A stretch of 64,000 bases of DNA from an uncultured Alphaproteobacteria bacterium (GCA_944389595.1 CALXMY010000002.1:57913-121912); one strand, 5' to 3'. Counted from the first letter of the stretch, positions 16,531 through 43,805 are shown. Translations and numbers: made by a program. The notes: a model not told the origin generated them from the sequence alone.

Positions 16531-16604
16531 GCCCTAATAGTCTAGTGGTAAAACACGTCCTTGGTAAGGACGAGTCGCAAGTCCGATTCTTGCTTAGGGC
16601 ACCA
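16531..16604 (+). tRNA. tRNA-Thr (GGU anticodon) with a non-canonical T-loop
   Basis: Acceptor GCCCTAA/TTAGGGC. Perfect anticodon arm CGTCC-UUGGUAA-GGACG. T-arm GCAAG-TCCGATT-CTTGC carries C at position 55 instead of U, and there is a D-stem mismatch. Encoded CCA. A TTGATT-16-TATAAT promoter lies at 16491-16518. Confidence 0.6.
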
Positions 16605-18138
16605 CTAAAGAATTCTCCCATGAAAAACTGTTAAATAGCCCGAAAATCGGGGATAAATTGATAGTCCCAAATTTTTGTTCTTTGTTGTAGGAAATTTTGT
16701 CCCTAAAGCACAAATTTAGGACTACTTGTTTGATGTTGTAATCTCCATTTTTCCATGCTTCAATGGGGCGTGAAATAAAATCAGATACATATCCGAAAGC
16801 TTCATCAAATGGCATTAATTCAGGGGTAAAGTTATCAACTTCTGATTGTAGTGATAATCTCTCTGATTCCAGCGCATTAATTTTTGCGTTAAGTGCCTTT
16901 TTCATAACATCGTTTGCGCTGATATATGCGTCAGTGATTAATGATTGTTCTTGTTCTATTGCAGATATGCGTTTCTTTTTTTCTTCGTTATTCGCACATG
17001 CAGCTTTATTGCGGTTTGAATATTCCCTTGTTGCTAATGCTCGTGCCAGCGCAATCAGATTCTCTTTTGGGGCAATTTTATTCAAAACCTCTGTTTCAAA
17101 TTCTTTATGCAAAATTTGCGGTGATACGTTGGCAAGTTTCTTTTTAGGGCAGTTCTTGTTTTGACACTGATAGTATGGATATTTGCCGCTTTTCGTCATA
17201 CTAGCAGTTAACGGGCGACCACACTCGGGACAGGTTATAAATCCCTTAAGTGGGAAGCGTTCATCATGTTTGTTGTATTTCTTGTGTCTAAGGCGGTTTC
17301 GTCCATGTAGGCGGTCTTGGATTAAATCAAATGTCGCAGTATCTATTAATGGTTCTATGTGCCATTTTTGGACTGGAATATCATATTTAGGATATGCGAA
17401 TATACCCGTATATTTGCGGTCGGTTAAGATGCGTTTCACAAAATCAAATATGTTTTTGGGGGTATGGAGACCGGCTAAGTGCATTCTTTCTGTTAAAAAG
17501 TTTGCTACATCGGTCTGAGATACTAATTTTGCGCTGGCGAATTGTTCTAGGGCTTCTTGTATTATCCCTGCCAATGGTTCATGTCGTTTTAATTCTTTGC
17601 GTGCGCCAATTTTTACGAATTGGTATCCCTTTGGTGGTTGCGTAATCCAATACCCATTTCTGGCGGCTTCACGCATACCGGCAATAGTTCTTTCTCTGTT
17701 CTGGTCTGCGAATAACTCTGCCTGTGCCGCTTCTATTGTTGCCATGAATTTCCCGACAGGGCTTGTTTCTAAAATTCCTTTGCATGTTGCCAATCTGTGC
17801 CCGCATCGTTCCATAGATTTGCGTAATTTAATGAAATCTCCTGCGTTGCGTGCTAATCGGCTTATGTCATAAAATAATACCAGACGAGGTTCTTTTATTT
17901 TTGATAGATAATCTATCATTTCTGCAAGTTGATCACGTCCTTCGGTTTTTGTTCCTGTTTTCGCTGCATCTATATAAAATTTTTCGATTTTGCAGTTATT
18001 CCGTTGCGCCCAAGATTCGCATGCCCATTGTTGTGTATCTAGGCCGTTGCCGTTATTGACCTGTTTATCGGTTGACACCCTATAATATGCAACCGCCTTT
18101 GTGATTTTATGATTTTCCATTGTGCAACACCTTGTCAA
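16594..18138 (-). CDS. large serine recombinase (phage-type serine integrase)
   Basis: N-terminal catalytic motif AYYRVSTDKQ, a recombinase domain and a C-terminal Cys zinc ribbon (CPECGRPL...CQNKNCP). The stop codon overlaps the last 11 nt of tRNA-Thr. The likely true start is MENHK at 18120. Confidence 0.85.
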   Translation of the reverse strand: MTRCCTMENHKITKAVAYYRVSTDKQVNNGNGLDTQQWACESWAQRNNCKIEKFYIDAAKTGTKTEGRDQLAEMIDYLSKIKEPRLVLFYDISRLARNAGDFIKLRKSMERCGHRLATCKGILETSPVGKFMATIEAAQAELFADQNRERTIAGMREAARNGYWITQPPKGYQFVKIGARKELKRHEPLAGIIQEALEQFASAKLVSQTDVANFLTERMHLAGLHTPKNIFDFVKRILTDRKYTGIFAYPKYDIPVQKWHIEPLIDTATFDLIQDRLHGRNRLRHKKYNKHDERFPLKGFITCPECGRPLTASMTKSGKYPYYQCQNKNCPKKKLANVSPQILHKEFETEVLNKIAPKENLIALARALATREYSNRNKAACANNEEKKKRISAIEQEQSLITDAYISANDVMKKALNAKINALESERLSLQSEVDNFTPELMPFDEAFGYVSDFISRPIEAWKNGDYNIKQVVLNLCFRDKISYNKEQKFGTINLSPIFGLFNSFSWENSLVVP

Positions 18139-41391: not shown

Positions 41392-42213
41392 ATGAGAGAG
41401 AAAAAAACAGGTGTAAATACACAAAGCAAACGCCGTGGTCGTGTGTGGCTGTGGTTATTTATCGTTATTTTGGTAATTTGTGGTGCCGCGACATGGGTGT
41501 TGTATGACGGCGGGGTTATTGGACGTAATGGCGCAATAAATGGCGGCTTTGTTGCGGAAACGGTTGCGGTTGTGCCGGTGGATACAGAAAATGTTGTGGT
41601 GGCGGACGAAACGCATGAAATTAAACCTGCATGTGTTATCATAGAAGAAAGTTTGTTGGGAAATATTGTTAATGACACACACATGGATTACGCGCGTCAA
41701 TACGATGCTGCGCGTACATATTCCGTTTTGGCGCAATATGGTTGTCCCGAAAATGCCCAGTTCTTTACCGATATGGCCATGCGCAGACAGACGATTGCCC
41801 AGGGTTTAGAGGCCGCATATGGCAACAACACAATGACATCGATTGAATACCTGTATTCTGATGAAAAAATTTGTGAAACAATTGAAAAACGTGTGCTGAA
41901 AAACATAGATACCGATGCGGATACTTATGATGAATTTTTACATAATGCGAATACATATGCGGTGTTGTATGAATATGGTTGCCGTGGAAACAAGGCTGCA
42001 TATATGCGCGCAGCGATTCGTGAATTGGGCGTGGCGGTGGCATTAATGCCAACCGATAAAATGAATCGTGATGAAATTGTAACCGTGGTTGAAATTTGCA
42101 AAAATCTGGGGGTGGCCGAGGCAGCACACCTGATGTTGCAACGGTTAAAGGCCCGTGGGTATGATATGGGATTTCTGTTGGAAATGGAAGATATTATACA
42201 CGGAATCCGCTAG
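41392..42213 (+). CDS. membrane-anchored repeat protein, paralogue family A'
   Basis: 273 aa. N-terminal TM, with repeats AARTYSVLAQYGCPENAQFFTDMAMRRQ and NANTYAVLYEYGCRGNKAAYMRAAIRELGVAVALMP that align with the ORF at 39752. Confidence 0.5.
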   Translation: MREKKTGVNTQSKRRGRVWLWLFIVILVICGAATWVLYDGGVIGRNGAINGGFVAETVAVVPVDTENVVVADETHEIKPACVIIEESLLGNIVNDTHMDYARQYDAARTYSVLAQYGCPENAQFFTDMAMRRQTIAQGLEAAYGNNTMTSIEYLYSDEKICETIEKRVLKNIDTDADTYDEFLHNANTYAVLYEYGCRGNKAAYMRAAIRELGVAVALMPTDKMNRDEIVTVVEICKNLGVAEAAHLMLQRLKARGYDMGFLLEMEDIIHGIR

Positions 42214-42289
42214 AAATAAAATTTGGCCCTGTGAAAAATACTTGCGTTTAGGTAAATTTAGTATATAATCACAGGGCTTTGAATTTGTT

Positions 42290-42364
42290 GCGGGCATAGT
42301 ACAAAGGCTAGTATGCAAGCCTTCCAAGCTTGAAATGCGGGTTCGATTCCCGCTGCCCGCACCA
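42290..42364 (+). tRNA. tRNA-Gly (UCC anticodon)
   Basis: Acceptor GCGGGCA/TGCCCGC, D-arm GTAC...GTAT, anticodon arm CAAGC-CUUCCAA-GCUUG, T-arm GCGGG-TTCGATT-CCCGC, encoded CCA. A TTGCGT-16-TATAAT promoter lies at 42242-42269. Confidence 0.85.
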
Positions 42365-42461
42365 AGAGAGCAGGTTAGGTGTAGTTGAGTTGGGTAACCT
42401 TGCGATGCAAACATCAACTCGTTGCTAATAACGCAACTCGTTGTGTTTTTATACGCGCGGT

Positions 42462-42479
42462 TTCCCGCTGCCCGCACCA
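42462..42479 (+). repeat. 18-bp exact direct repeat of the tRNA-Gly 3' end (TTCCCGCTGCCCGCACCA)
   Basis: Identical to 42347-42364 and located 97 bp downstream of the tRNA. Looks like a truncated T-arm/acceptor copy. Confidence 0.85.
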
Positions 42480-42593
42480 AAAATTGTGAAAAATGGAATC
42501 TGCTTGATTTTGATTCCGGTCATGTACGCTTTGTACACTCGCCTGCATCAAAATCATCGCATCTTCCGATTTTTGACAATTTTTAACAAGATT

Positions 42594-42680
42594 GGGCGTG
42601 CGCCGGAGTTGGAGAGCCGGGGCAGACTGTAAATCTGTTGGCTTAAGCCTGAGGTGGTTCGAATCCACCCACTCCCACCA
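42594..42680 (+). tRNA. tRNA-Tyr (GUA anticodon, class II long variable arm)
   Basis: Acceptor GGGCGTG/CACTCCC with one mismatch, D-stem CCGG/CCGG, anticodon arm GCAGA-CUGUAAA-UCUGU, variable arm GGCTT-AAGCC, T-arm GGTGG-TTCGAAT-CCACC, encoded CCA. Confidence 0.8.
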
Positions 42681-42685
42681 AAATA

Positions 42686-42722
42686 TAAATACCCGCCAAA
42701 TGGCGGGTATTTATATTTTGAG
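42686..42722 (+). terminator. rho-independent terminator after tRNA-Tyr
   Basis: TACCCGCC-aaat-GGCGGGTA hairpin followed by TTTATATTTT. Confidence 0.65.
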
Positions 42723-42830
42723 TTGTGGTATATGGATTAGGCCATACAATCGCCAGATTGTTTGGTTCGGAACAAGCGCATTAGCGCGCAGTGAAAGGGG
42801 CCCGCCGCAATTTATTGCGGTGGGAATTAC

Positions 42831-42849
42831 AATCCACCCACTCCCACCA
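42831..42849 (+). repeat. 19-bp exact direct repeat of the tRNA-Tyr 3' end (AATCCACCCACTCCCACCA)
   Basis: Identical to 42662-42680 and located 150 bp downstream. Preceded by a degenerate T-arm-like GGTGGGAATTACAAT. A terminator hairpin CCGACC-ggat-GGTCGG plus T-run follows at 42859-42879. Confidence 0.85.
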
Positions 42850-43198
42850 AAACACAAACCGACCGGATGGTCGGTTTTTGTTTTGTGTTGGGACAAAAAT
42901 CTTTTATTTTTTTGTGTGTTTTTGGTACAATTATGGGTGAATCCAGTGGGGACACTGGTTCGGTGCTTTTACATGCCCGCCAAATCCGGTGCAACATGGC
43001 AAGCCGTCGGGAATATGATGTGCTTTCTGTGAAATGCGTCGTTATTTATCACTGACTTGTAAAAGTCGGGGGCTGTTGGTTATACAATACGGGTTCCCCG
43101 AGAGACCAATGGAATCAACGATTTGGTGATTTGTGAACCATCGACCGCCTGATGTCTTTGCTGGGCGGTTTTATAAATGACTATGGGGGTAAAATAAC

Positions 43199-43756
43199 TT
43201 GGTACGGAATTTTTATTTTTTTCGGCATGGACAAACAAACGAAAATGCCGAAGGCGCAAAAGAGGGTAATCGTACAGATGCATTTCTGACATCGGATGGT
43301 GTTTTACAGGCCAAGCAATTGGCCGAATTTTTGCGCGATAAAAAAATAGACGCGTTTTATTCTTCGCCATTGCCGCGGGCGGTGCGTACGGCTGAAATTG
43401 TGGCAGAATATCATCCTGCGACACCAATTATTATCGAAGATGATTTTATTGAGACAGCATTCGGATTTTGGTACAACGATGATGCGGATGCGCAACGTCG
43501 CATAGACAATAATTTTAACCGCATCAGTGGTGCGTTGGGGCGTATTGTTGCGCAACGTGAATTATTGGATGTTGCTGTATCGTCGCATGGCGGTGTGACG
43601 CGTGCGTTGTGTTGGGCGGCGGGGATGCGTGTTGGGAATATTAAAAATTGTCAATGTTTTCATTTTGTTTTGGATGATACTGGTTGGCATTTTGTGGAAA
43701 GTTTTGATACAGGAATCGAAGTTGTAAATAAATCTGATATCCCCCAGGATGAATAA
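43199..43756 (+). CDS. histidine phosphatase family protein (phosphoglycerate mutase-like, SixA/GpmB-type)
   Basis: 185 aa. The N-terminal catalytic RHGQT motif preceded by hydrophobic FYFF. A TTG start is likely. Confidence 0.6.
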   Translation: MVRNFYFFRHGQTNENAEGAKEGNRTDAFLTSDGVLQAKQLAEFLRDKKIDAFYSSPLPRAVRTAEIVAEYHPATPIIIEDDFIETAFGFWYNDDADAQRRIDNNFNRISGALGRIVAQRELLDVAVSSHGGVTRALCWAAGMRVGNIKNCQCFHFVLDDTGWHFVESFDTGIEVVNKSDIPQDE

Positions 43757-43805
43757 TCCTAAAAATTTTTGCGTTGAATGTTTTATATGCTAAAATCCCA
43801 TTCAT

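Follow-up and report, generated by a model that had tools for sequence, protein, structure and literature searches.

The two direct repeats of tRNA 3' ends in the 64,000-nt window (the whole stretch of DNA analysed here) each close one copy of a family of short structured modules appended to tRNA genes. These units were discrete, conserved and structurally constrained, and their arrays differed between strains; the last segment of a unit was always the 3' end of the local tRNA, and its first segment could pair with that end. The explanation preferred here, with moderate confidence, is that the modules are structured elements comparable to the RtT repeats of Escherichia coli, which would be transcribed with the tRNA operon and whose arrays would be reshuffled by recombination between the repeated tRNA ends.

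The original prediction held that the end of tRNA-Gly recurs 97 bp, and that of tRNA-Tyr 150 bp, downstream of the respective gene, and both observations were reproduced with exact coordinates and gaps. The last 18 nt of tRNA-Gly(TCC) (TTCCCGCTGCCCGCACCA, hereafter the Gly core) occurred at 42347–42364 and 42462–42479 only, with a gap of 97 nt; the last 19 nt of tRNA-Tyr(GTA) (AATCCACCCACTCCCACCA, the Tyr core) occurred at 42662–42680 and 42831–42849 only, with a gap of 150 nt. No extra copy of either repeat was found in the 64 kb with up to two mismatches, and two repeat matches arose in none of 100 dinucleotide-preserving shuffles; both repeats are beyond chance. The last 12 nt of the tRNA-Met and tRNA-Thr genes of the window were not repeated within it, and three further tRNAs in the fetched loci (neither Gly nor Tyr) also lacked an end repeat, in what is a far too small sample. 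The features of the region are as follows:

42242–42269, plus strand: promoter-like element of the tRNA operon (TTGCGT, 16 nt, TATAAT, then a 20-nt leader)
42290–42364, plus strand: tRNA-Gly(TCC) (ARAGORN; Rfam tRNA, 71 bits)
42365–42479, plus strand: module A, a hairpin cassette of 115 nt whose 3' end is the Gly core copy (42462–42479)
42480–42588, plus strand: module C, a near-perfect hairpin of about 106–109 nt (inverted repeats I3 and I4; fold)
42594–42680, plus strand: tRNA-Tyr(GTA) (ARAGORN; Rfam tRNA, 38.5 bits)
42679–42720, no strand assigned: t1, a terminator-like perfect palindrome with 20-nt arms and a 2-nt gap (inverted repeat I1)
42725–42738, plus strand: anti-core of module D (GTGG..GGATT), complementary to the Tyr core
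42739–42830, plus strand: body of module D, three hairpins (RNAalifold, 6 species)
42831–42849, plus strand: distal Tyr core copy closing module D (exact 19-nt repeat)
42848–42885, no strand assigned: t2, a terminator-like hairpin with its stem at 42856–42877, then a T run (terminator scan, both strands)

About 115 related loci were compared. A scan of one genome per species gave 30 syntenic loci, all from uncultured gut Alphaproteobacteria, several of them named Candidatus Enterousia, and the window belongs to the Candidatus Enterousia group of gut Alphaproteobacteria. Relatives of the protein encoded immediately upstream (41392–42213) were graded from 99% down to 51% identity. Scanning metagenomes with the 19-nt Tyr core yielded a further 86 loci, of which approximately 60 represented the same Gly-Tyr locus in a wider gut and rumen clade; about 20 were chance matches to the 19-mer in unrelated DNA and were set aside. 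Exact-protein look-ups produced 16 contigs of the window's own species, and the tyrT region of E. coli K-12 was fetched as a comparison (L203).

The tRNA genes themselves were nearly invariant across this range, tRNA-Tyr being identical in all 20 GTDB species for which the complete gene was captured, and tRNA-Gly in nearly all of the 30 species (97–99% in three). The acceptor stem of tRNA-Tyr contained a C4-U69 mismatch that was common to all related species. The stop codon of the gene upstream could be placed in 14 relatives; in these, both promoter hexamers and the 20-nt leader were kept, and the promoter spacer and the sequence after the stop codon were variable. A consensus scanner missed this promoter because its -35 hexamer matches at only three of six positions.

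Between tRNA-Gly and tRNA-Tyr, the spacer took one of several forms among the loci compared: 5–7 nt only, A (114–115 nt), B, C, A+B, or A+C, the last being the form in the window. The inverted repeats that had been noticed between the Gly copies are real, and proved to be part of a single long hairpin spanning the whole 115-nt unit of module A (helices 42378–42382/42474–42478, 42388–42404/42454–42469 and 42409–42425/42433–42448), in which the Gly core pairs with the module's own 5' arm. Module A was present in 12 GTDB species and in two further loci (L108 and L109), and was precisely absent from others, for example from a contig of the same species (L200). Its positions 24–115 were up to 100% identical between species (several at 100%), while positions 1–23 drifted. 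In the consensus fold 98% of cells were paired, compared with 31–50% when partners were slid; three pairs had changed on both sides, and the score was reached by none of 500 shuffles. In L108 and L109, the 3' end of tRNA-Gly is a variant, TTCCCTCTGCTCGCACCA, which also closes their module A and pairs with the 5' arm of that module. The distal copy is therefore maintained, and not decaying.

Module C carries no tRNA copy and has terminal inverted repeats of 16 nt (42479–42494/42569–42584). It alternates at the same position with module B, a sequence of about 81 nt with two hairpins, the first of which showed several stem variants. Module C was 97–98% identical in L031 and L032, where the flanking protein was 53% identical, but the sister genome of L031, L033, lacked it; within the species of the window it was present, truncated or absent. 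The 64-kb window contained no second copy of module A, C or D.

Downstream of tRNA-Tyr there was either a terminator alone, or between one and three units, each comprising a terminator-like palindrome, a body and a Tyr core. The bodies belonged to family D (as in the window), E or G; D and E are related, and are bridged by intermediates from the rumen. Simple D and E units in Enterousia species measured 162–170 nt from CCA to CCA, whichever terminator they contained, and family G units approximately 180–240 nt. Palindrome t1 is the first part of the D unit, and moves with D as one 169-nt unit in the window's species. The D anti-core pairs with 42831–42835 and 42838–42841 in the consensus fold, the outer part of this closing helix being imperfect; its paired columns hardly vary, and its support comes mostly from conservation. 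The three hairpins of the body (42743–42751/42756–42764; 42766–42769/42792–42795 around 42776–42779/42784–42787; 42801–42811/42814–42824) had 97.9% of cells paired, against 38–45% when slid, with three pairs changed on both sides (RNAalifold, 6 species). Two-sided pair changes were more numerous in the other families, affecting 11 of 20 in E and its rumen relatives and 12 of 35 in G, and the 5' arms of sub-families aligned in different registers. Family G has an anti-core (TGGGAGTGGGTGGAT) that matches the reverse complement of the tRNA-Tyr 3' end exactly and forms a closing helix of 10 bp; it stands a few bases past the terminator, so that core, terminator and anti-core make one large palindrome. 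The anti-cores of D and E are degenerate and occupy the same place. An A in the family G anti-core lies opposite U69 of tRNA-Tyr, where pairing would be possible.

The copy of the Tyr core had also been described as preceded by a degenerate T-arm. That segment is better explained as the 3' arm of hairpin 42801–42811/42814–42824, since in relatives the pairing of this hairpin is kept by two-sided changes, and that of the pseudo-T-stem is lost. A tandem tRNA pseudogene was likewise rejected, as the 68 nt before the Tyr copy share only GGTGG with tRNA-Tyr, and GGTGG lies within the covarying hairpin. Neither the 97-nt nor the 150-nt interval contained a credible ORF or an integrase fragment, and a promoter scan of the window found no promoter-like site in D. 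An ORF that starts in tRNA-Tyr and crosses D (42592–43032, plus strand; L001, 4207–4641; 144–146 aa) has been called as a gene in public metagenome annotations, and is almost certainly spurious.

Several variants of the post-Tyr units were observed. Distal cores of 17 nt (AATCCAGCAGCCCACCA and the related GATCCCGCAGCCCACCA and AATCCAGGGTCCCATCA), which are 2 nt short for tRNA geometry, occurred on D or E bodies in L197 (2134–2150), L195, L198, L201, L030, L008 and L015; in the same-species contig L195, it is AATCCAGCAGCCCACCA that replaces the distal Tyr core. Composite units were seen in L134 (3435–3701), L136 (3558–3796), L171 (51–291) and L160 (471–727; all in re-oriented coordinates), where a D/E-type Tyr core was split after AATCCACCCAC(T) by an AT-rich segment resembling the 3' half of G and flanked on either side by ACCCAC(T), a pattern suggestive of nested insertion or of crossover within the core. 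Finally, a GC-rich metagenome contig from a different organism (L172), with the same tRNA-Tyr 3' end, contained a perfect palindrome with 30-nt arms that joined the final 12 nt of the tRNA, a terminator and an inverted copy. The core/anti-core layout thus extends beyond the Enterousia clade.

Module conservation is far above that of nearby neutral positions. Families A, D/E and G were common to species in which the neighbouring protein was only 51–79% identical, a divergence at which neutral positions close to the locus (those in the promoter spacer and 3' of the stop codon) differed freely and could not be aligned. The consensus folds were equally good on both strands, with single-sequence energies favouring the plus strand weakly; given this lack of strand bias, the constraint could act on DNA.

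The arrays turned over within one species. In same-species contigs whose 1.5 kb of flank matched the window at 98.7% identity or more, there were five alleles of the Gly-Tyr spacer (A+C, A with truncated C, C, B, and a 38-nt mini-hairpin) and six post-Tyr arrays (none, D, E, D-E, E-D and E-D-E). The borders of gain and loss were exact, and fell at the tRNA-end copies; in the empty allele of L193, the CCA of tRNA-Tyr was followed directly by the window sequence 3' of the distal core, beginning with the first 15 nt of t2. Module states were scattered on a neighbour-joining tree of two proteins, and sister genomes differed. Nine of the 30 species assemblies (L005, L006, L014, L016, L019, L020, L024, L028 and L034) and several metagenome contigs stopped inside or just after tRNA-Gly, which is consistent with the breaks expected from within-sample or strain differences just downstream. 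The 325-nt intergenic segment between t2 and the histidine-phosphatase gene (42865–43189) was exchanged for an unrelated 34 nt, containing TATAAT, in four same-species contigs (L193, L194, L195 and L202).

It was proposed in the original prediction that alignment with related genomes would reveal larger elements between the repeats. Alignment did reveal units with present and absent alleles, as well as islands at the site, but the islands were unlike the small units. Integration at the tRNA-Tyr 3' end does occur in this clade: the gene for a 501-aa tyrosine integrase (PF00589) begins right after the tRNA-Tyr CCA in L122, L127 and L180, and large serine-recombinase islands follow a core in L035, L118 and L141. 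Gene content between tRNA-Tyr and a conserved LppC-like gene was highly variable among relatives, and this interval behaves as a variable islet; genes found directly downstream of tRNA-Tyr included a TaqI-like N6 DNA methylase (L008, 5513–7132) and an AbiU2 protein (L035, 5292–7991). In L032 (5145–6705), a 1.3-kb AT-rich insert with two small minus-strand ORFs, neither with a Pfam match, was situated inside an E unit and bounded by direct repeats of about 100 nt comprising core, terminator and anti-core; its right end recurred in L168 (approximately 660–760). Elsewhere in the window, the 3' end of tRNA-Thr(GGT) (16531–16604) was overlapped by an ORF on the minus strand (16594–18138) for a large serine recombinase with Resolvase, Recombinase and Zn_ribbon_recom domains; G+C was 0.33–0.36 just beyond this ORF, and a low-GC stretch occupied 18–24 kb.

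The closest parallel to these units was provided by the RtT repeats in the tyrT operon of E. coli (RF00391; gene rttR). In K-12, the 19-nt end of tRNA-Tyr has one further copy in the tyrT-tyrV spacer and three after tyrV, spaced by 178 nt, and all four units were matched by the Rfam RtT model (133–138 bits). The RF00391 consensus closes each unit with a helix, GgGaaGG/CCuuCcC, that includes the tRNA-derived end and corresponds to the anti-core/core helix. RtT matches were obtained in 4,700 E. coli genomes, at 1 to 9 copies each (median 2), and at this sensitivity a further 726 genomes had none. To our knowledge, the tyrT repeats have been without an explanation since the late 1970s, and we know of RtT repeats from enterobacteria only. 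According to two papers citing Bosl and Kersten 1991 (PMC3318445; bioRxiv 10.1101/2024.07.17.603846), a single repeat unit of the tyrT operon encodes the rtT RNA, which has a role in processing of the tyrT transcript. In papers citing that work, including the 2024 preprint (bioRxiv 10.1101/2024.07.17.603846), its mode of action is described as unknown; the RtT helices are stated to have covariation support in another paper (PMC8250186).

The correspondence in layout is extensive. Like D (42681–42849), RtT lies directly 3' of tRNA-Tyr in the same orientation, and the final 19 nt of its unit repeat the end of the tRNA with its CCA, as those of D do at 42831–42849. A 5' segment of RtT pairs with this tRNA-derived end to close a branched hairpin body, just as 42725–42738 pairs with 42831–42841 in D; one RtT unit lies between tyrT and tyrV, as module A lies between tRNA-Gly and tRNA-Tyr, and the tandem arrays vary in copy number between strains in both cases. 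Unit length is also similar (178 nt for RtT, about 169 nt for D). Since both the repeat layout and the closing helix of RtT match the units described here, the design is the same. There are nevertheless differences: every Enterousia Tyr unit starts with a terminator-like palindrome, while the E. coli units lack such hairpins; there are several unrelated body families (A, D/E and G) and a tRNA-Gly version, unlike RtT; and the modules reside in the small genome of an alphaproteobacterium. Short motifs shared with RtT in a pairwise-style alignment were limited to GATGAGAA and GGTTCGA. The RtT model gave no match at E ≤ 1 in 41500–43800 of the window, nor at E ≤ 10 in L197, L013, L123, L129 and L173, in a run where the E. 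coli units were positive, and the window units did not reach the 45-bit threshold of the RF00391 covariance model. Rfam at permissive thresholds returned only the two tRNAs and weak chance matches for the region. Conversely, an nhmmer profile of the D/E family did not find the E. coli RtT units. Homology of D/E to RtT was rejected on the negative results of model and profile, and the likeness is therefore architectural, rather than detectable homology. The modules are filed here as probable functional analogues of RtT that are not members of RF00391.

Under the preferred RtT-like explanation, a unit consists of an anti-core, a hairpin body and the last 15–19 nt of the preceding tRNA, with a terminator-like palindrome in front in the case of Tyr units. 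Transcription from the tRNA promoter would certainly include A and C, which are inside the Gly-Tyr operon, and would extend to D through t1; with a terminator-like palindrome ahead of every Tyr unit, D would be made by read-through only. Because every unit recreates a tRNA 3' processing site, it may be released by the enzymes that process tRNA 3' ends, after which the anti-core/core helix would close the free RNA. The arrays could change by slippage or recombination between the repeated tRNA ends, aided by the hairpins, since hairpins bordered by repeated cores would lend themselves ideally to slippage and unequal recombination; homology arms for exchange between strains and species might be provided by the invariant tRNA genes. 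The terminator-like palindromes, the promoterless D and the unbiased folds are points against a purely RNA-level reading, and a substantial part of the probability accordingly stays with a cassette mechanism at the DNA level.

Such a mechanism, possible in our estimation and held tentatively, would make the units non-autonomous mobile DNA cassettes, with the anti-core/core hairpin as a DNA recombination site and a recombinase, encoded elsewhere, inserting and removing them at the tRNA 3' end. Folded DNA has comparable roles in integron attC sites, the folded attP of CTX phage and REPINs. The suggestion in the original prediction that the repeats might bound very small mobile entities agrees with the presence and absence of units between genomes and strains, and with borders at the tRNA-end copies. 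Gain, loss and reordering within one species with exact borders are as expected of cassettes, as are modules 93–100% identical where the flanking protein is 53–79% identical, with a patchy distribution on the tree. The same applies to folds lacking strand bias, to perfect palindromes joining core, terminator and anti-core, to integrase and serine-recombinase islands at the same site, and to the 1.3-kb gene-bearing version, bounded by direct repeats of about 100 nt, in L032 and L168; we also infer that 115 nt and approximately 169 nt are near whole numbers of helical turns. However, no recombinase was consistently linked to the units in the fetched flanks, the window held each module once, and ordinary core-core recombination can yield all of the arrays observed. 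A double-stranded circle of 115–170 bp would be physically awkward, and the E. coli counterpart is known as an RNA. Viral contigs also provided no match: the original prediction had recommended a phage search of the spacers, but exact-word scans of IMG/VR with conserved words of A, D and E produced chance seeds only, and the bodies showed no extended similarity in these contigs.

Comparison with known cassette systems, namely integron cassette arrays with attC sites, palindromic elements of the REPIN/MITE type and the intergenic mosaic elements of Neisseria, produced both likenesses and differences. Arrays of short modules bounded by a common short site, with strain-variable content, are shared, as are imperfect palindromes with 'inverse core ... 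core' ends in which structure is kept above sequence. Unlike integron and REPIN systems, the shared site is here a functional tRNA 3' end, and no IntI or RAYT-type gene was identified; none of the proteins checked downstream of tRNA-Tyr in relatives was an integron integrase. REPINs and MITEs are dispersed through genomes in many copies; here, copies were seen at one locus only, within the 64 kb of the window. A stronger form of this proposal appears improbable to us: the tRNA 3' end would be a docking site at which a site-specific recombinase acts on units folded as single strands, inserting, excising and reordering them, with anti-core and core folding into a copy of the tRNA acceptor/T-stem duplex. 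If true, it would amount to an integron-like or CTX-phage-like mechanism with the tRNA end replacing attI or dif, and RtT of E. coli would be a domesticated relative.

A further reading is that the units are neutral by-products of quasi-palindrome template switching at terminator hairpins and of unequal crossing-over, functionless as RNA and as DNA, the adjacent tRNA end having been copied inverted and then direct; we consider this doubtful. It would account for palindromes, perfect or nearly so, that have the terminator loop at their centre and include 12–16 nt of the tRNA end, for the strand-symmetric architecture, and for the nested hairpin insertions that split some cores and duplicate ACCCAC(T) on both sides. 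Template switching would also explain distal copies that track the tRNA. However, module bodies were kept, with many compensatory pairs, across genus- to family-level divergence, where neutral DNA cannot be aligned, and positions 24–115 of A were frozen while its first 23 nt drifted.

The weakest explanation is that of the original prediction, in which the repeats were attL/attR footprints of integrated elements since almost completely deleted. Direct repeats of the tRNA 3' end do flank DNA that is absent from some relatives, and thus bound variably present inserted units, as they do in tRNA-targeting integrative elements, which include att-flanked islands and non-autonomous, cis-mobilisable derivatives and are likewise variable in presence between strains. 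The units differ from such elements in having no integrase or cargo within their 115–240 nt, and in having an anti-core, a covarying hairpin body and tandem arrays of alternating types. Conservation as a structured element in relatives, which had been named as evidence against integration, was found for the sequences, while their presence was variable. Thus, decayed scars are unlikely, and we give them very little credence: the tRNA-end repeats start in the T-loop, the classic crossover position of integrases, genuine integrase islands occupy the same tRNA-Tyr end in relatives and gene content downstream is highly variable, but independent decay would leave remnants differing in size and sequence, whereas the same constrained units of fixed size (114–115 nt; 162–170 nt) with an anti-core recur in dozens of genomes, also in tandem, with compensatory changes, with a distal copy equal to the local tRNA even where that tRNA has changed, and with no integrase gene or other element-gene remnant between the repeats.

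For metagenomics, the practical consequence is a locus that breaks assemblies and yields spurious gene calls. With abundant covariation and natural presence/absence alleles, the new families make both function and mechanism testable. The design of RtT, in which a copy of the tRNA's 3' end closes a structured body, is present in uncultured Alphaproteobacteria of gut and rumen, in several unrelated sequence families and behind two different tRNAs, and its units turn over rapidly from strain to strain. These findings suggest that tRNA-appended modules are a general and recurrent class, beyond an oddity of E. coli.
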